From: Vicinamibacterales bacterium | GTDB lineage: Bacteria > Acidobacteriota > Vicinamibacteria > Vicinamibacterales > UBA8438 | NCBI GenBank assembly: GCA_965249105.1 | Contig: OZ252219.1 | Coordinates: 3,634,941-3,698,940, forward strand | Direction: 5' to 3' | DNA length: 64,000 bases | Shown here: in pieces, positions 56,112 to 64,000 of the stretch | Numbering within the stretch: position 1 is the stretch's first letter | How the letters are laid out: the number at the start of each line of letters is the position of its first letter | Notes under the pieces: generated by a model | Seen by the model: the letters and a program-made list of their open reading frames with translations, nothing else | What the model was told of the DNA's origin: nothing | Database searches by the model: none | Position numbers and translations under genes: made by a program

Positions 56112-56468
56112 ATGAAGTCAGCAGCCTACATGACGGGCGCGTGCGTGGCGTCGTGGCTCATCGGCGTCGTGCTCTTCGCCCCTGAGGCCGCGATCGAACT
56201 GCTTGCGGGTATGGCGCTACCGCTCGTGATGGCGGCTGGGACGATGACGCTAGTCGAGCGGACCTGTGCCCGTGACCCACGCCAGCTGACGCCGCTCATG
56301 ATGAAAGCCTTCGGAGCGAAGATGGTCTTGGTCGGCGCGTATGTGGCGGCGGTCTTGGGTGTCACACCACTCGACCCGGTCCCGTTCGCGGCGAGCTTCT
56401 TCGTGTATTTCATCGGCCTCCATCTGACCGAAGCGCTACAGCTGCGGTCGTTGTTCTCTCATCGATGA
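56112..56468 (+). CDS. AtpI-like membrane protein
   Basis: About 4 hydrophobic segments, between atpZ-like and atpB. Confidence 0.65.
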   Translation: MKSAAYMTGACVASWLIGVVLFAPEAAIELLAGMALPLVMAAGTMTLVERTCARDPRQLTPLMMKAFGAKMVLVGAYVAAVLGVTPLDPVPFAASFFVYFIGLHLTEALQLRSLFSHR

Positions 56469-56490
56469 CAGCTGGCCCGGTCTTAGTGTC

Positions 56491-57417
56491 ATGAGCCAAC
56501 CTGACGAGCACGCGGCCGACCACGCCGAAGAGGGTTTCGACGCGGGCGAGATGATCATCAGTCACGTGGCCAACGGCGGATTCGACCATCCAATCGTTCA
56601 TCTCCGACCGCTCTTCGGAATCGACTTCTCGATCACCAAGCACGTCTTCATGCTCTGGTTAGTAGCGACGCTGGTATTCCTCGCCGTCACACTGACGACG
56701 CGTCGATACCTGAAGCAGGACCGCATGATTCCTTCGGGCTTCATGAACGCCCTGGAATTCTTGGTCCAGCTCATCCGCGACTCGATCGTGCTGCCCAACG
56801 TCGGGGCGAAGTGGGTCAACACCTGGACACCCTTGATCCTCACGTTGGCTGTGTTCATCCTGGGCGCGAACGCGATCGGTCTGATCCCGGTCTTCGATCT
56901 CCTTGGCCTGATCGACCACATCGTGCTACGCACGGAAGAGCATTCAGTCATCAAGAACATCGTCCATGGTGGCACCACGGCAACGGCAAACTACAACGTG
57001 ACAGCCGCACTGGCTACGATCACATTCGTGTCGATCATCATTGCCGGCTCGAAGGCGCACGGGTTCATCAGGCACTGGATCAACCTGGTCCCTCGTGGCT
57101 TGGCGTGGCCGATCTACATCCTGTTGATCCCGATCGAGGTGATGTCCATGTTCGTCAAGCCGTTCGCGCTCACGATGCGGCTGGCGGCAAACATGACCGG
57201 GGGGCACATCGCCATCCTGGCGATGCTCTCGTTTGTATTTGTGTTCAGCGAGCGATTCTCGAGCGCCATGGCGGGGATCGGTGTCGGTCTCGTGGTCTCG
57301 GTTCCGCTGGCTACCGGCATCATGGCCCTTGAAATCATCGTGGTGCTGATCCAGGCCTACGTCTTTACGCTACTTACAGCCGTGTTCATCGGAATGGCTA
57401 TCAACGTGCACCACTAA
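56491..57417 (+). CDS. atpB: ATP synthase Fo subunit a
   Basis: SITKH, KPFALTMRLAANMTGGH (essential Arg), IQAYVFTLLT. Confidence 0.96.
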   Translation: MSQPDEHAADHAEEGFDAGEMIISHVANGGFDHPIVHLRPLFGIDFSITKHVFMLWLVATLVFLAVTLTTRRYLKQDRMIPSGFMNALEFLVQLIRDSIVLPNVGAKWVNTWTPLILTLAVFILGANAIGLIPVFDLLGLIDHIVLRTEEHSVIKNIVHGGTTATANYNVTAALATITFVSIIIAGSKAHGFIRHWINLVPRGLAWPIYILLIPIEVMSMFVKPFALTMRLAANMTGGHIAILAMLSFVFVFSERFSSAMAGIGVGLVVSVPLATGIMALEIIVVLIQAYVFTLLTAVFIGMAINVHH

Positions 57418-57445
57418 TCGCGAGAAAAGAGGGAGGGTTACCTGC

Positions 57446-57667
57446 ATGGACGTCTTGCACTTATTTGGGGCCGGGATCGGCCTTGGACTGGTCGTTATCG
57501 GGGCCGGACTGGGCATTGGAAAGCTGGCCGCCGCCGCCGCTGACGGCATCGCGCGTCAGCCAGGCGCCGCCGACAAGATCACGGGCGCGATCAACCTGCC
57601 GCTCTTCCTCCTTGAAGGCGTCGCCATCATCGCCGAGGTTTTGATCCTGATGGTCGTCTTCAACTGA
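57446..57667 (+). CDS. atpE: ATP synthase Fo subunit c
   Basis: GAGLGIG, ARQP loop, LLEGV ion-binding Glu. Confidence 0.93.
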   Translation: MDVLHLFGAGIGLGLVVIGAGLGIGKLAAAAADGIARQPGAADKITGAINLPLFLLEGVAIIAEVLILMVVFN

Positions 57668-57683
57668 CGCCAAGGAGCAGTGA

Positions 57684-58184
57684 ATGGATAACCTCGTCCA
57701 GCCCGACCCGGGGCTGTTCATCTGGACGATCTTCACCTTCCTGGTGTTGCTGTACTTGCTGGCGAAGTTCGCCTGGAGGCCGCTCCTCGCGGCACTCGAG
57801 AGCCGGCAGGAGGACATCCGCAAGTCACTGGACGACGCGGACAGGGCCAAGAAGGAGTTAGAGCACGTCCAGGAGGAATCGAACCGGATCGTCTCGAAGG
57901 CCCGAGCAGACGCCGACGCCATTATCGCCGGCAGCCGCGTCGACGCCCCGAAGCTCCAGGATGAGCTCAAGCGGAAGGCCCGAGCGGAAGCGGACGGCAT
58001 CATCCTGAACGCCCAGAAGGAGATTCAGCGGCAGACTGACCAGTCCTTGACTCAGATCCGCGAGGAGGCGGTCGACCTGTCCCTCATGATCGCCTCGAAA
58101 CTGATCCAGAAGAACCTGTCCAAGGAAGACAACGACAAGCTGATCGAGGACGCCCTCAGTCAGGTCCAACCGCCCCAGGCCTAG
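57684..58184 (+). CDS. atpF: ATP synthase Fo subunit b
   Basis: PGLFIWT..LLAKFAWRPL..ESRQ, charged coiled coil. Confidence 0.93.
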   Translation: MDNLVQPDPGLFIWTIFTFLVLLYLLAKFAWRPLLAALESRQEDIRKSLDDADRAKKELEHVQEESNRIVSKARADADAIIAGSRVDAPKLQDELKRKARAEADGIILNAQKEIQRQTDQSLTQIREEAVDLSLMIASKLIQKNLSKEDNDKLIEDALSQVQPPQA

Positions 58185-58228: not shown

Positions 58229-58996
58229 ATGAGCATTTCGCCCGACGAGGTTCAGGCAAAAGGAGAACCGATGGCACTGGCGAGTAGGATGATCGGCGGC
58301 TGCGCGCTCAGCGTTCTGGGAATGGTGTTCGCCCTACCGGGGATGGCGTACGCAAAGGCGGACGAGACCCCAACCTACACGAAGGATGTGGCGCCGATCT
58401 TCCGCGAGAAATGCGAGGCCTGTCACCGGCCCGGCTACATCGCGCCTATGTCGCTGCAGACCTATGCTGAATCGCGGCCCTGGGCTCGTTCGATCCAGAA
58501 CCGTGTCGCAACACGTCAGATGCCGCCCTGGCACATAGACAAGTCGGTTGGCATCCAAGATTTTCAGAACGATAGGTCGCTTACGGATACGCAGATCGCC
58601 ACCATCGTTCGATGGGTCGACGGTGGCGCCCCCCAGGGAGACCAGGCAGACCTTCCGCCGGCGGCCGTCTTTGCCGACGACGACGTCTGGAACTTCGCGG
58701 AACGGTTTGGCGGACCGCCGGACCTGATCATCAAATCGCCGCCGCACACCATGCCGGCCTTGGCCCAGGACCACTGGTGGAAACCGGCTGTGCCAACCGG
58801 CCTGACCGAAGACCGCTGGGTCCGCGCTATCGAGATCCGGCCATCGACGTCGGACGGCCGTCGCATCACGCATCACGCGCTGGCCAGGCTGCGACGAGAT
58901 CGCCATTCCGCCGAGTCCATCGAGCCACGGTTTCGCGGTGCTCGGGAGGCTCAGTGCAAACCGTTGGACAGGTCTAACGTCATCATCCCCGCCTAG
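58229..58996 (+). pseudogene. Exported CxxCH-containing protein, truncated near 58892
   Basis: PTYTKDVAPIF..CEACHRPG..APMSL..RQMPPW..DRWVRAIEIRP..HHA, then reads into the antisense of the kinase. Confidence 0.7.
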
Positions 58997-59968
58997 CAGG
59001 GCGGCCCCAATCGCCACGCCGGCAACCAGGGCTATGCCGCCAACGACGTAGAGCAGAGAGCGCTGCCAGCCAGCGGTTCCAGAGGATTCCGCCGCGCTGG
59101 TTGGTCGCAGCAGGCTTTCAAACGCTCCCTCCATTGCCAGCTGCACGTCGCCAATATCTCGAACGCGACGCGCTCGGTCTTTCTCGAGACAGGCGTGCAG
59201 GATCTGAGTGAGTCGGGGAGCTGTGTCGGCGGGCAACGCATCCCACGCTGGCTCGCTCTTCATGACTGCTGCAATCGTGTCGGTGAGGTCCTCACCGGGG
59301 AACGCCCTGCGCCCCGTCAGCATCTCGAACAACACCGCACCGAATGCCCACACGTCTGCTCTCTTGTCTACCGTTCGACCCTTCGCCTGTTCAGGGGCCA
59401 TATACGCCGCCGTCCCCATGATCACGCCCATCTGGGTGGCAGCAGCAGTGAGGGTCGGCGACAGCGAGGGATCACCTTGCGGTGTTGTGTTCTGGGCTTT
59501 GGCGAGGCCGAAGTCCAGCACCTTGACGGTCCCGTCATCTCGCACCTTGATGTTGGCCGGCTTCAGGTCGCGGTGAATGACACCGGCTTCATGCGCCGCT
59601 TCTAGGGCCTCAGCGATCTGTTTCGCGATGGGTAGGGCTTCATCCAGCGGGATCGGTCCTTTGGCGATGCGATCAGCCAGCGTTGGCCCTTCGATCAACT
59701 CCAAGACGAGCGCCCGCGTGTCGCCCGACTTCTCTAGCCCGTAGATCGCGCCAATGTTGGGATGGTTGAGCGAGGCCAGCACCTTCGCTTCACGCTCGAA
59801 CCGAGCCAGCCGGTCGGGGTCTGCGGTGAAGGCGTCGGGTAGCACCTTGAGGGCTACGTCCCGGTCGAGGGTCGTGTCGGTGGCCTGATAGACCTCGCCC
59901 ATGCCGCCTTCGCCGATGAGGGCGGTCACGTCGTAATGGCCGAGGCGGGAACCGACTTCGAGCGCCAT
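58892..59968 (-). pseudogene. Hanks-type Ser/Thr kinase with TM helix; C-terminal propeller lost at ~58892 (ORF reads on to 58334)
   Basis: GEGGMGEVY, VALKVL, HRDLKPAN, DFGLAK, GTAAYMAPE intact; family-like sequence stops at GGMAIS. Confidence 0.8.
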
Positions 59969-60060
59969 GATCTAAGGATGGAGAACTGGAGGCCATTCTA
60001 TGCCCAAGCTATGGTTCGCTCCAGTTTGACAGTGCCAGCCGTGGCCTATAGCGTCCGCCC

Positions 60061-60420
60061 ATGGACGTGTCGGAGCTCACACCCGAGCAGCTTGAGAAGC
60101 TACATCAGGCTCTCGAGCGCGATCGACTACGCCTGGAAGAACACCTCCAGCTCACCAAAGAGGGCTCGAAACCCGTCCAGATCGGCACCCCGATGGGGCG
60201 TGTCTCGCGCATGGACGCCATTCAACAACAGCAGATGACCAAGGCGGGCCGCGCCTCGCTCGACATCAAGCTGCGGCAGGTCCGCGCCTCGCTCGAGGCG
60301 TATCGAAAAGGTGACTACGGCTACTGCCGTTCCTGCCACGAGCCGATCGGATACCCACGGTTGAAGGCTCGTCCCGAGGCACCGTTCTGTTTGAACTGCC
60401 AGGACACCAGCGAGTCTTGA
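60061..60420 (+). CDS. TraR/DksA family C4 zinc-finger protein
   Basis: GRVSRMDAIQQQQM, YGYCRSC..RLKARPEAPFCLNC. Confidence 0.9.
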   Translation: MDVSELTPEQLEKLHQALERDRLRLEEHLQLTKEGSKPVQIGTPMGRVSRMDAIQQQQMTKAGRASLDIKLRQVRASLEAYRKGDYGYCRSCHEPIGYPRLKARPEAPFCLNCQDTSES

Positions 60421-60905
60421 ACGACCTCGGCACACGCCCAGTTGGTGTACAGCGAGATGACCCGAGCGGACACTCGGCTAGACAGAACGCAGTCGTGCCG
60501 CCCAACCGCCTCTGCGAAGCTTGCGTACGCTTTCTGACGGCATTTCGAGTCGTGAGGCGACTCAGGCTAGGTCGGGACGGAGATCGTGCGGGAGAACCCG
60601 TGCGTGCGCTTTGTGGCGAGACGGCTCAGTGCAACGTGTTGCACTCGCCACATGTGAGGCGGGCTTCAACTATCAGTCGACGGGCACGTCACCGAGGCCT
60701 AGGGTCGTCGTTTCGTGAAGTGGCGAGCGCACAGCGCCAAAATGTGTGTCGCGTAGCACAGGCCGGCGCTATGAGCGTCTAGAATCACGCACAACCTGCG
60801 CCATCGTCACTCCGCTTGACGCCCGCTTCAGATCTACCTGAGGGCAACCCGTTGCTCAAGGATAAGCGGAGCGAGCGGTCGGCGATCCGGAGGGAGCGGC
60901 AAGAC

Positions 60906-61814
60906 ATGCACCATGTCCAGGTTCATTACGTGGAGCACCACGACGCGAACATCGACATCGGGCCGCACGTGTTCCGGACCGAGAAGTACGGAATTGTCCC
61001 GCGCGTGCTCAGGTCAGAACTCGGGGTCGGGGACGAGCGTTTTCATTCGGCCAACAGGCTCGAGGAGGACGATTTGGCTCGGGTTCACACAGCCGCGTAC
61101 ATCTCCGACCTGCAGCATGCCCGTACCACCCCGGCCACTGCCGCCAGCGAGCTGCCGGTCAACCGCGCCGTCATCCAGGGGTTCTTGGCCATGACGGGTG
61201 GCAGCATCACGGCGGTTCGACTCGCCCTCGTGCACGGCATCGGCTTTCACCTCGGCGGGGGGTTCCACCATGCCTTCTCAGACCACGCCGAGGGCTTCTG
61301 CTACGTCAATGATGTGGCCGTCGCTATCGAACGCAGCCGCGCCGACCGAACGCTGGGTAAGGTGCTGATCGTCGACGTGGACGTGCACCAGGGCAACGGC
61401 ACGGCGGCGATCTACGCGCACGACTCCGACATCTTCACCTACTCCATCCATCAGGACCACAACTACCCGGTCAAACAGCGCAGCGACTTCGACCGCGGCT
61501 TGGTGGACGGCCTCGAGGATGCAGAGTATCTGCGGATCTTGGCCTCTGACCTGGACGCGATCGCGCTGCGCTTTGCTCCGCAGCTGGTCTGCTATTTAGC
61601 CGGCGTCGACCCCTACGAACACGACCAACTCGGGGGTTTGAGACTCACGCAAGAGGGCCTCCAGCGACGCGATCGCTACGTGTTCGACCGGTTCGTCCAG
61701 CGTGGGATACCCATCGCCGTGCTGCTCGCCGGAGGCTACGCCCGAACCCCACAAGAAACCTCCATGCTTCACGCTGGCACCGCACGAGCCGCCGAGGCAG
61801 CGTGTGTGGCATAG
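60906..61814 (+). CDS. Histone deacetylase family (Zn-dependent) protein
   Basis: GGGFHHA, GFC, DVDVHQGNGT, GVDP, LAGGY. Confidence 0.92.
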   Translation: MHHVQVHYVEHHDANIDIGPHVFRTEKYGIVPRVLRSELGVGDERFHSANRLEEDDLARVHTAAYISDLQHARTTPATAASELPVNRAVIQGFLAMTGGSITAVRLALVHGIGFHLGGGFHHAFSDHAEGFCYVNDVAVAIERSRADRTLGKVLIVDVDVHQGNGTAAIYAHDSDIFTYSIHQDHNYPVKQRSDFDRGLVDGLEDAEYLRILASDLDAIALRFAPQLVCYLAGVDPYEHDQLGGLRLTQEGLQRRDRYVFDRFVQRGIPIAVLLAGGYARTPQETSMLHAGTARAAEAACVA

Positions 61815-61856
61815 CGTGTGTCAGCCCGCCGGACGGCGCAGGTGAGCCATCCGGCT

Positions 61857-62036
61857 TCAGTGTGACATCCGCTGCTTCAGATCGGGATCGGCCGCGACGT
61901 GTTCGGGCAGCACCTTGGTGGCGACGGTGCGGTCCAACCGGGTATCGGTGCCCTGGTAGACCTGCCCCATGCCCCCCTCGCCGATGAGGGCGGTGACGTC
62001 GTAGTGCGCGAGGCGGCTACCGACGGTTAAGGCCAT
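61857..62036 (-). pseudogene. Ser/Thr kinase 5' stub (59 aa)
   Basis: Hand translation [59 protein letters not shown]. Confidence 0.85.
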
Positions 62037-62275
62037 AAGTTGTACGAGTTAGCCCGATTCAGCGCCATGATAACGAAGCCGGTGAGGTGGCGCACTTCTC
62101 CCCCGCTCTATACGTGCAAACGACAGGAAAGAAGGCTCGGGCCGTACTGGCGGGAGTGCCACCGGTGCCAACTGGCTGATCCCGATGCGACGTGTCGTTC
62201 AGGGCAACGTGCTGTGGGACAGCAAGTTAGGTTCGGCCGAGTTTTGGCACAGCACGGGGTGGTTTCAGAGTCAAA

Positions 62276-63019
62276 TCACGGTTTGGTTGTGACCACAGCC
62301 GCCAGCGCGTCCCGTTCCTGGCGACTCACGCGCCGACCGTGCAGCGGATGCATGACAGGCAGCAGGAAGTAGGCGAGGCCGGCAAAGCCCTGGTACGGCG
62401 ACGGAAGCCCGAGCGCCAGGACGACCGAAGCTAAGCCGACGCCGGCCTGGATAAGGTGGGTCGCCACCAGACCCCGCGTGAGGACGACCTCCACGTCGTT
62501 GAGCTCGAGCTCTTGACGCCGCTTCAGCGCCTGCGCCGCCATGAGGGCGAGCAGCACGTACATGGCGACGAACCCAATTCCATAGATCGCCAGCAGCGTT
62601 CCGACCGATCGCGGCCCAAGGCCGAATTGTTCGACCGCTGGCTGCCCCCCTGCGGTCACCCACGCGGTCAGAAACGCCCACATGAACTTGAGCGGGTAGA
62701 CGTAGACGAGCACGACAAACAGCAGCGACAGGTTGAGCAGCGTCGTCGGCCCGTCCTCGAGGCCGTAGCGGCGGAAGTGGATGAAGTGGAAGTACCAGAC
62801 CAAGACGATGAGTACGAAGCTGAGGGCGAACGCCGGCAATGCCTGCATTGCCGCGATGAACTCACCATAGGAATTGGGTACCTCGGCCGAGACCACCAGC
62901 AGCGTTACAGACAGCGCGAACACAGCGTCGGCGAACGCCTCGATACGCGAGACTTGCCCGCCGCGCCAACGGAAGTTCTTCTCGAAGGGAATCTTGTGCT
63001 GCAGGTAGCTCCAGTCCAT
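62276..63019 (-). CDS. TMEM175 (DUF1211) family potassium-channel-like membrane protein
   Basis: SRIEAFADAVFALSVTLLV motif (RxxxFSD variant), multiple TM segments. Confidence 0.85.
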   Translation of the reverse strand: MDWSYLQHKIPFEKNFRWRGGQVSRIEAFADAVFALSVTLLVVSAEVPNSYGEFIAAMQALPAFALSFVLIVLVWYFHFIHFRRYGLEDGPTTLLNLSLLFVVLVYVYPLKFMWAFLTAWVTAGGQPAVEQFGLGPRSVGTLLAIYGIGFVAMYVLLALMAAQALKRRQELELNDVEVVLTRGLVATHLIQAGVGLASVVLALGLPSPYQGFAGLAYFLLPVMHPLHGRRVSRQERDALAAVVTTKP

Positions 63020-63086
63020 GACTCGGCATCCTGATTGTCGTGTTGACTCCGGATGGTTAGTTCGTACGACCCGCACCTCGGTTGGG

Positions 63087-63209
63087 CTACCGCGCCACTT
63101 GCCGGTTCAGCTTGGTATCAGTGGCCTGATAGACCTGCCCCATGCCGCCCTCGCCGATGAGGGCGGTCACGTCGTAATGGCCGAGCCGGGAGCCGACGGT
63201 CAACGGCAT
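63087..63209 (-). pseudogene. Ser/Thr kinase 5' stub (40 aa)
   Basis: Hand translation [40 protein letters not shown]. Confidence 0.85.
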
Positions 63210-63248
63210 GGGTTGGGGGAATTGGCCCTGGTGCTGCGTCTCGCCAGA

Positions 63249-63659
63249 CTACTTCCATTCCCAGCACTTGTTCACGGCGTTCCCATCGGCTGTGACCTCG
63301 TAGTTGCCGACAAGACCGATGCTGTTCAGATCGACATACTTCGCGGCGACGGTGTGGACGTGGAGCATCGTACGAAACTTGGTTGGGTCACCAGGCGAAG
63401 GGGCCTGCCCAGAACCATGCCCGGTCAATTGGAGCACGTCGCCAGCTTGGGTGGTCAACACTCCGTCGCCGTGCCCGTAGATCGAACCATCGGGCCTGAT
63501 AAGCTGCCAATACGTCCAGAGGGTGGATTCCGCCACTCCCCGAATGGTTCCCGTGGTCCGAAGACATACCTCAATTTTTGTGCCTGACGCATCGTTGGAC
63601 ACGACACGAATGCCGGTCACCGTACCAGTTTCCTCGAGAATGAGATCACCTAGAGCCAT
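63249..63659 (-). CDS. Hypothetical beta-rich protein
   Basis: Strong AAGGGAGG RBS, non-repetitive 136-aa ORF ending CWEWK. Confidence 0.75.
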   Translation of the reverse strand: MALGDLILEETGTVTGIRVVSNDASGTKIEVCLRTTGTIRGVAESTLWTYWQLIRPDGSIYGHGDGVLTTQAGDVLQLTGHGSGQAPSPGDPTKFRTMLHVHTVAAKYVDLNSIGLVGNYEVTADGNAVNKCWEWK

Positions 63660-63717
63660 CGACTTCCTCCCTTTTTGAACGAGTTCACGAAGGTACCGGT
63701 CGCTAGACTGACACCTC

Positions 63718-63867
63718 TCAGGACGTCCTCCCTTTCGGCAAGACCTTCAGCGCCACGTCCCGGTCGAGCTTGGTGTCTCTGGCTCGATACATCTGGCCCA
63801 TGCCGCCTTCGCCGATCTTGGCGGTGACGGCATACGGGCCGAGGCGGGAGCCGGGGCCTAGGGACAT
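63718..63867 (-). pseudogene. Ser/Thr kinase 5' stub (49 aa)
   Basis: Hand translation [49 protein letters not shown]. Confidence 0.85.
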
Positions 63868-63869
63868 GG

Positions 63870-64000
63870 TCAGTTCACTGGCACCCGCGCAGTGAGTTCC
63901 TCGAACCAGTTGAGCACGACGGTGATCGCAGGTTGTGCCGAATCTTCTGTGTCGTCCTTGAGCAGCAGGAACCGCTCCCCATGGGGATCGACGGCGATGC
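63870..64000 (-). CDS. C-terminal end of a probable kinase-associated beta-propeller protein (continues beyond window)
   Basis: Hand translation ...[14 protein letters not shown]...[19 protein letters not shown]; stop lies 2 nt before the next stub's ATG. Confidence 0.75.

Follow-up and report, generated by a model that had tools for sequence, protein, structure and literature searches.

The truncated kinase starts described here, which duplicate the beginning of an expanded gene family, are likely integrase-free cassette handles, whose homology would let unrelated cassettes be stored and exchanged with no dedicated integrase. The reason is that strains, species, and genera have exchanged the cargo between these stubs, with crossover points falling within the kinase gene starts. 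A sequence-only reading of this DNA had regarded the kinase 5' sequence as a recombination handle in an integron-like array. Chimeric stubs, homology ending within stubs, and reordering of cassettes uphold the handle, whereas the integron mechanism was abandoned, as neither IntI, a fixed break, nor an invariant core was found.

Kinase starts and cargo in the window

The window is the whole 64,000-nucleotide stretch of Vicinamibacterales DNA that was analysed. As reported earlier, four kinase starts lie on its minus strand, at 63867, 63209, 62036, and 59968, with ORFs of 49, 40, 59, and 544 aa, respectively. They form one repeat family (143 nt), in which the stubs show 69-76% identity to the long copy, and all four keep the IGEGGMG motif in frame. 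The DNA homology to the kinase stops at nt 136 in stub 1 (63732..63867, minus strand; ORF 63718-63867), at nt 118 in stub 2 (63092..63209, minus; ORF 63087-63209), and at approximately nt 157-171 in stub 3 (61866..62036, minus; ORF 61857-62036), the later limit of the last being read from the sequence. The start of stub 1 is coupled to an upstream stop: the ORF containing VVLNWFEEL ends 2 nt before it and encodes a C-terminus belonging to that same family of kinases, namely the 3' end of a kinase-propeller gene (63870..64000, minus) that is interrupted by a Mutator-family transposase beyond the window edge.

The fourth copy does start at 59968, but the description of it as a long gene needs correction, since it is not intact. 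It holds the entire kinase domain and the TM segment, with 368 aa of homology (58896..59968, minus), is broken off at the start of the propeller, and is fused head-on at 58895 to a truncated cytochrome-c-like gene (58229..58895, plus), which continues into different sequence in other samples. The ORF itself runs past the end of homology to 58334. Upstream of this start are a promoter-like site (59969..60010, minus; TAGAAT at 60000-59995), which is common to other kinase starts and putatively functions as a promoter, and the left part of a spacer termed U (60504..60681, minus; model positions 7-171).

Pfam searches confirmed the TMEM175, histone deacetylase, and dksA/traR identities of cargo between the stubs. 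The first cargo gene encodes a 136-aa hypothetical protein with its own RBS (63249..63659, minus), beginning 73 nt past the break of stub 1; it has no Pfam family, its Atlas look-alikes are all unnamed, and its predicted structure is of low confidence (pLDDT 54). The second, a TMEM175-family membrane protein (62276..63019, minus), likewise begins 73 nt past the break of stub 2. It has relatives at five metagenome loci and an 83%-identical copy in the congener G009, where no handle was detected in the 20-kb locus. The third cargo consists of a histone-deacetylase-family protein (HDAC; 60816..61814, plus) and a DksA/TraR zinc-finger protein (60061..60420, plus), both antisense to the stubs.

The stub family across the genome

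The genome contains 144 kinase-family starts, comprising 118 5' stubs versus 26 long genes. A comparison of 5' stubs with other kinase fragments, proposed in the sequence-only reading as a check, revealed a strong 5' excess, with internal fragments almost absent. When 36-nt DNA profiles trained on only 21 long genes were used, nt 1-36 gave 130 matches and the windows up to nt 96 gave 116-130, compared with just 23-32 beyond nt 240, catalytic core included (null, 0-1 in all cases); hence the 5' bias holds against an equally detectable kinase core. The DNA identity of the paralogues was 0.75-0.79 in codons 1-220 and 0.43-0.54 beyond. The stubs had been thought to break at or shortly after VAxK, which did not hold genome-wide: break positions are spread between 26 and about 500 nt without clustering at VAxK. 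A hard lower limit of 60 nt was also ruled out by stubs of 26-60 nt, and a soft limit applies to promoter-bearing handles, as 50 of the 52 promoter-anchored starts retain at least 61 nt.

The complete handle corresponds to a tandem-kinase junction, consisting of the 3' tip of one kinase, spacer U of about 235 bp with the promoter-like site, the ATG, and the first 26-500 nt of the next kinase. Besides the 5' end proposed earlier, the handle includes the upstream spacer and the 3' tip of the previous kinase. U normally separates the stop of one kinase gene from the start of the following one, and the handles are trimmed to variable lengths on both sides.

Among adjacent handles spaced within 6 kb, 122 of 125 were co-oriented. 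The same stub arrays were present in three congeneric species (G007, G004, and G001) at loci chosen for containing stubs, and no handles were found at the orthologous ATP-synthase locus in six relatives. Many arrays have no intact kinase at their end, where a pure insertion model predicts one.

Cargo pool and junctions

Among 75 first genes after stubs, 47 had a non-mobile Pfam family (mostly hydrolases and oxidoreductases), two were transposases, one was a kinase piece, and 25 had no family. The gene following the stub was on the same strand or fused to it in 94 of 118 cases, as co-oriented cassettes with minimal flanks; the other 24 were antisense, the HDAC and TraR genes of the window among them. 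With genes called by a simple custom caller, stub breaks fell within 60 nt of a gene boundary in 39% vs 5%, and stub frames running out of frame through the cargo start were depleted (10 observed against 24.3 expected, n = 93, p = 2e-5). ATGA coupling at the stub/cargo border was not enriched (9 vs 7 and 7). Judging from these sequence signatures, many stubs likely supply a promoter and translation to their cargo.

Exact microhomology of 5-11 nt was present at five of 12 independent junctions (null, 0.001 each), although break-calling can inflate short runs, and the remaining seven had 0-2 nt; this set was obtained from 16 rows by removing two stub-to-stub joints, one duplicate, and one IS end. 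No motif was found at the stub breaks. IS ends were excluded as the cause of the breaks, accounting for only one of 118, and so was target-site duplication as the origin of stubs, as neighbouring stubs are only about 70% alike. An origin by reverse transcription was rejected because many stubs retain the promoter, which lies upstream of any transcript start; by coordinates, none of the ten RT matches is inside the main arrays, the nearest being a few kb from an isolated handle.

Exchange of cassettes between loci and lineages

Several pairs of stubs were chimeric. The stubs at G000 1544845 and G007 L018:7179 share their cargo junction and differ to nt 51-60, and those at G000 2764148 and 3093711 also combine the same cargo junction with different 5' halves; conversely, 2391044 and 2396264, as well as 3150450 and 3984699, have the same upstream sequence followed by different cargo. 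Between L036:5456 and 1026127, there were patchy third-position differences from nt 45 on. Linkage between marker sites dropped across the G-loop, from an r2 of 0.5-0.9 within nt 13-51 to 0.2-0.5 with nt 73-124. Furthermore, the same stub and cargo junction occurred at several loci in three species.

The genome and its congeners have 42 low-copy segments in common with 85-99% identity, compared with 70-74% for core DNA. For 13 of the 84 segment ends, both genomes had the end within the stub zone, which makes up about 5% (binomial P = 6e-4); this count is to be read with the tendency of BLAST alignments to extend to the end of any shared stub. Since 60 of the 84 ends were outside the stub zone in both genomes, the handles are not the sole joints. 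In another genus (G012), the 12 blocks listed were 91-99.7% identical and in a new order, two of them being joined at handle nt 39-45.

The HDAC-TraR cassette was found in all four sequencing runs analysed, from four other studies. Its contigs departed from the window sequence at kinase nt 55 in three runs and ended in stub 3, and TMEM175 and the kinase body were uncovered in the runs carrying the cassette. The comparison of cargo order called for by the sequence-only reading gave both reordering in another genus and strain polymorphism at the window locus. No excision circle and no trustworthy skipping joint were seen in the read contigs, which also break at repeats and from which stub-to-stub joints were left out, their sides being mostly shorter than 30 nt. 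Two RNA runs, with just 5-6% of the sequence words, were also set aside. Taken together, these comparisons show that crossovers fall inside the handles and that cassettes travel from one locus to another as well as among strains, species, and genera.

Alternative explanations

Promoter capture through microhomology deletion is known, as described in the available text of PMC6614815, and the arrays could be ascribed to directional decay with such capture alone, in which kinase bodies are deleted and the promoter and first codons are kept to drive the next gene without any movement of cargo. Stubs joined directly to a kinase 3' tip (1742113 and 3154642), the 20 of 44 kinase C-tips that are isolated, the mixed arrays of whole genes and stubs in other gene families (17 whole and 14 stubs at the examined G070 loci), and the expression signature at the junctions are all in keeping with this account. 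However, it leaves unexplained the chimeric stubs, the junction repeated at several loci in three species, the joins at nt 39-45 in G012, the antisense cargo, and the length retained by nearly all promoter-anchored starts. Such decay probably describes how junctions first arise; as the whole explanation it is improbable.

It is still less probable that a dedicated recombinase or nuclease recognising palindromes of spacer U or G-loop DNA drives capture and shuffling. Spacer U contains three short inverted repeats that are conserved, the locally G-rich strand carries 146 of 184 handles compared with 56% of genes, and five of the ten elements combining a tyrosine recombinase with an IS91-type transposase are within 10 kb of a handle, against a background of 19-28%. 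On the other hand, the breaks form a continuum, as do the left borders, variation at third positions extends over the whole stub, and there is no break motif, fixed crossover point, or invariant core. Many handles have no U. The spacer showed no covarying fold (covariation term 0.01), and the Rfam search gave nothing significant, with only two weak matches below the gathering score; an RNA structure in U was rejected on these grounds. The IntI model TIGR02249 had no match over the cut-off in the genome; the best proteins covered only model positions 2-177 and 212-315 and were paired with IS91-type transposases. These IS91-type elements were ruled out as the driver, having neither similarity to U nor a link to the breaks.

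The earlier alternative that the stubs are retained as expressed N-lobe peptides modulating full-length kinases now seems very unlikely. The frames are mostly open (internal stops in seven of 217 stubs), differences lean to third positions, and stub frames look translated; yet stub lengths form a continuum between 9 and about 170 codons and the tails are arbitrary, and the patchiness of the third-position bias is what recombination with coding copies would produce. Collapsed-repeat misassembly is refuted by window copies only about 70% alike, by contigs from run X1, which may be the source sample, that show 0 differences from the cargo and span both the 58895 junction and the start of stub 3, and by the same arrays in independent genomes.

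Proposed mechanism

For the preferred reading, in which the stubs serve as homology handles, we propose that a stub and cargo junction would first arise by an illegitimate, often microhomology-guided join, either through a deletion or through uptake of foreign DNA facilitated by homology, and would be kept if it lay immediately ahead of a gene or directly behind one. Cargo between two handles of 70-90% identity could then be excised, inserted, or replaced by RecA-type recombination, with crossovers mostly at nt 40-100, around the G-loop common to all subfamilies. The genome has recA, comEC, and ku genes. The 5' end would be favoured because it is conserved across paralogues, unlike the 3' halves, because a crossover there would leave the downstream kinase intact, and because its promoter and translated leader would express promoterless cargo.

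Comparison with known systems

In the available text of PMC5361080 and PMC1797815, it is proposed that the arrays of orphan modules in T6SS effector-immunity, Rhs, CDI, and MafB systems expand through illegitimate recombination facilitated by homology, and that their modules are exchanged by homologous recombination with a parent-gene fragment as the anchor and no integrase. The kinase arrays likewise have modules headed by an anchoring parent-gene fragment. They differ in keeping the gene start and promoter, in deriving from a signalling kinase family, in having more than 100 handles at many loci, and in the cargo, which has no relation to the parent gene and, unlike a toxin C-terminus with its immunity gene, does not complete it.

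In the Staphylococcus aureus lpl cluster, the exchange unit spans adjacent tandem paralogues shuffled at a conserved stretch (PMC2568036, available text). Chimeras and linkage decay point to crossovers in a conserved stretch of tandem paralogues here too, but lpl reassorts parts of paralogues and yields intact paralogues, whereas most kinase bodies are replaced by foreign genes. Minimal mobile elements are exchanged by natural transformation and RecA, and the genome here has comEC and recA. A minimal mobile element is a variable cassette between two conserved, single-copy, intact genes at one locus, unlike the kinase handles, which are multicopy coding fragments dispersed over the genome; therefore, cassettes change locus and order. 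In the available text of PMC1797815, the minimal mobile elements and NIME arrays of Neisseria exchange genes via homologous flanks or repeats without mobility genes. NIMEs are non-coding, in contrast to the kinase handles.

Integrons line up small accessory genes in one orientation, often without promoters, with one repeat per cassette, and vary between strains. The kinase arrays have the same organisation, but they lack IntI and a fixed crossover point, and each handle can carry its own promoter. An attC hairpin follows each integron cassette; spacer U showed no covarying fold and is missing from many handles. SXT/R391 elements restore their target gene on integration. They integrate in the 5' end of prfC and form tandem arrays (PMC2786100, available text). 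Insertion at a gene's 5' end and tandem arrays are common to both systems, but SXT/R391 elements are large and self-transmissible and use a site-specific integrase at one site. The kinase-stub system resembles both the orphan toxin arrays and the minimal mobile elements, except that its cargo is unrelated. In the literature searched, which comprised titles and the starts of abstracts with few subscription journals and no supplements, no account of kinase 5' stubs or such arrays was found.

If the preferred reading is true, ordinary recombination acting on a family of paralogues is enough for a gene-cassette system to build itself, without any dedicated enzyme, and genes would cross a 30% divergence barrier by virtue of the common handle. 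A bolder view, which we hold tentatively and regard as nearly as apt to be right as wrong, is that in a lineage of Vicinamibacterales the start of the most expanded signalling gene has become a universal, self-propagating cloning site. This would be an integron counterpart that needs no recombinase: every handle would combine att site, promoter, and leader, and about 120 enzyme cassettes per genome would be traded across genera. The arrays would also offer a traceable route for the birth of promoterless cassettes, an open question for integrons. Kinase stubs, which are too short to pass gene-calling cut-offs and would escape annotation, may serve as a marker for the accessory enzyme pool of uncultured Acidobacteriota.

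Results

The four minus-strand kinase starts reported by a sequence-only reading at 63867, 63209, 62036, and 59968 were confirmed with the ORF lengths claimed, and the cargo (unrelated genes) between the stubs (short 5' pieces of the Ser/Thr kinase gene) was as described there. The starts constituted one repeat family of 143 nt with 69-76% identity to the long copy at 59968. This copy had been described as long; its homology covered only 368 aa, followed by a head-on fusion at 58895 to a truncated gene. With nine intact close copies as the reference, a full-length family member was about 890 aa and consisted of a kinase, a membrane segment, and a tail that we take to be of the propeller type. 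The gene ending in VVLNWFEEL indeed preceded the first stub, but it was the terminal part of a further gene from the kinase's own family. The cargo at 63249-63659 encoded a 136-aa all-beta hypothetical protein, whose Atlas look-alikes at 0.95 were unnamed clusters drawn from both bacteria and archaea.

Run X1, possibly from the source sample, agreed with the assembly, which speaks against misassembly. The HDAC-TraR cassette, located between the long copy and the stub at 62036, was nearly unchanged in runs from four other studies. In three runs, its contigs left the window sequence at kinase nt 55 and continued elsewhere; the opposite end lay within that stub, bearing in mind that repeats break contigs. 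Neither the TMEM175 cassette nor the kinase body was covered in the other-study runs, which does not prove their absence, and the truncated flanking gene extended beyond 58895 in three runs in total.

The source genome is a single gap-free contig (C1) of 6.11 Mb. A nucleotide profile built solely from 21 long genes matched 130 times at nt 1-36 and 116-130 times in windows up to nt 96; the count fell to 58 at nt 97-132 and to 23-32 past nt 240 (null, 0-1). With protein windows, aa 1-25 gave 158 matches and the best-conserved window, aa 126-150, gave 35. The genome-wide comparison of 5' stubs with other kinase fragments showed a 5' excess in both counts. There were 144 kinase starts (26 long and 118 stubs), and the top relatives of the start were from Vicinamibacterales. 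Breaks at or just after the VAxK strand, as had been claimed, were not a genome-wide rule: break positions ran continuously from 26 to about 500 nt. Matches were also found in the congeners G007 (132), G003 (59), G001 (51), and G004 (43); fetched loci of G007, G004, and G001 contained the same arrays, and those of other families, chosen for their hits, contained arrays mixing whole genes and stubs.

The kinase starts fell into two classes, one within a few bases of the upstream stop and the other preceded by a spacer of about 235 bp, termed U, which began at a kinase stop, contained three short inverted repeats, and ended in a promoter-like TGGACA-17-TACAAT site. No covarying fold was detected among 20 copies of U. 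The left borders of U were cut at variable points, 20 of 44 kinase C-tips stood alone, and a left piece of U was located at 60504-60681 in the window, between HDAC and TraR; therefore, the retained unit is the junction of two tandem kinases, with cargo replacing the gene body. We call this unit, from the 3' tip to the first nucleotides of the next kinase gene, the handle. Among 58 promoter copies, a start followed in 52, of which 50 kept at least 61 nt, and none was detected after six. At C1:803490-803565 and 1084062-1084108, the kinase promoter was joined directly to the RBS and ATG of the cargo with no stub, which is plain promoter capture.

Neighboring handles at most 6 kb apart were on one strand in 122 of 125 cases. 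Handles lay on the locally G-rich strand in 146 of 184 cases versus 56% of genes, their clusters not being independent. The skew of C1 showed several sign changes and dnaA was at 4.90 Mb, suggesting inversions. Two long arrays met head-on at C1:2380074-2381565, where a 574-nt piece was 98% identical to a G004 cassette. One unit of a stub plus an acidic tail occurred in three copies (C1:1996281, 2375488, and 5299833), one with an internal stub deletion. The source genome was rich in multicopy elements, with 402 segments (475 kb) present at least four times. In the window, ATP synthase F0 genes at 56112-58184 (subunits a, c, and b assigned from the sequence, with Pfam confirming b) formed a conserved block that stopped at atpF with no F1 genes after it and adjoined the stub array; no handle was found at this locus in six relatives.

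Gene calls for the following counts came from a purpose-made hexamer caller. Of 16 junctions with a handle-free cargo copy, four were dropped (two stub-to-stub, one duplicate, and one IS end); of the 12 independent ones, five matched the stub end exactly over 5-11 bases and seven over 0-2 bases. Of 205 breaks, 39% were no more than 60 nt from a gene boundary, versus 5% of random points. Among the 118 genes that came next after a stub, 71 were on the stub's strand, 23 formed an in-frame fusion with it, and 24 were on the opposite strand, the genome-wide baseline for same-strand neighbors being 66%. The stub frame crossed the cargo start out of frame in 10 of 93 cases versus 24.3 expected, suggesting that the stubs may be translated leaders under selection; ATGA overlaps were not enriched. 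Named first genes were mostly hydrolases, dehydrogenases, and transferases, and 25 of the 75 scanned (79 listed minus three window genes and one duplicate) had no family.

Recombination within the handle was examined in 15 hand-picked pairs aligned at the ATG. Some chimeric stubs had different 5' halves ahead of one shared cargo junction, others had shared upstream DNA with different cargo, and the switch points were mostly at nt 40-100. Among 254 handles, linkage at 42 marker sites dropped across the G-loop, and third codon positions were variable throughout; therefore, the handle has no invariant site. Low-copy segments at least 85% identical between the source genome and congeners numbered 42. 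Of their 84 ends, 13 were in the stub zone (about 5%) in both genomes, 24 in either, and 60 elsewhere. Since core DNA identity is only 70-74%, we infer that these segments represent recent transfers. In G012, from another genus, 12 listed blocks with 91-99.7% identity to scattered sites of the source genome appeared in a new order, three of them touching no handle. One cassette met an amidase cassette, located elsewhere in the source genome, at handle nt 39-45.

An integron-like mechanism was not supported: IntI was not found in the source genome, the breaks are continuous, and an invariant site is lacking. recA, comEC, and ku were all present. Ten C1 copies of a 2.5-kb element (e.g., 4747099-4749574), with short flanks alike at both ends, encoded a 308-aa tyrosine recombinase and an IS91-type (Y2) transposase; these recombinases belong to the IS91-type elements, have no sequence link to U or the breaks, and were rejected as handle enzymes.

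Discussion

DNA identity between paralogues was 75-79% across codons 1-220 and 43-54% in the rest of the gene; therefore, recombination between paralogues is not possible through their 3' pieces. A handle from inside the gene would interrupt the kinase it enters; one carrying the promoter and ATG would instead leave a whole gene downstream and the cargo expressible. Once 5' handles dominate, cassettes losing theirs would presumably fall out of the pool. Many arrays had no intact kinase at the end; therefore, deletion also acts on them.

For orphan T6SS, Rhs, and MafB arrays, homology-facilitated illegitimate recombination together with homologous exchange has been proposed (PMC5361080, PMC1797815). 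The kinase stub arrays resemble these arrays in working, and likewise lpl shuffling (PMC2568036) and promoter capture (PMC6614815); a membership test placed them in none of these groups. No description of kinase 5' stub arrays was found in the literature searched.

The stub arrays are real and occur genus-wide and beyond. The proposal that the conserved kinase 5' sequence acts as a recombination handle is supported by the chimeric stubs, the shared cassettes, and the G012 join, which are direct comparative evidence that handles serve as crossover joints.
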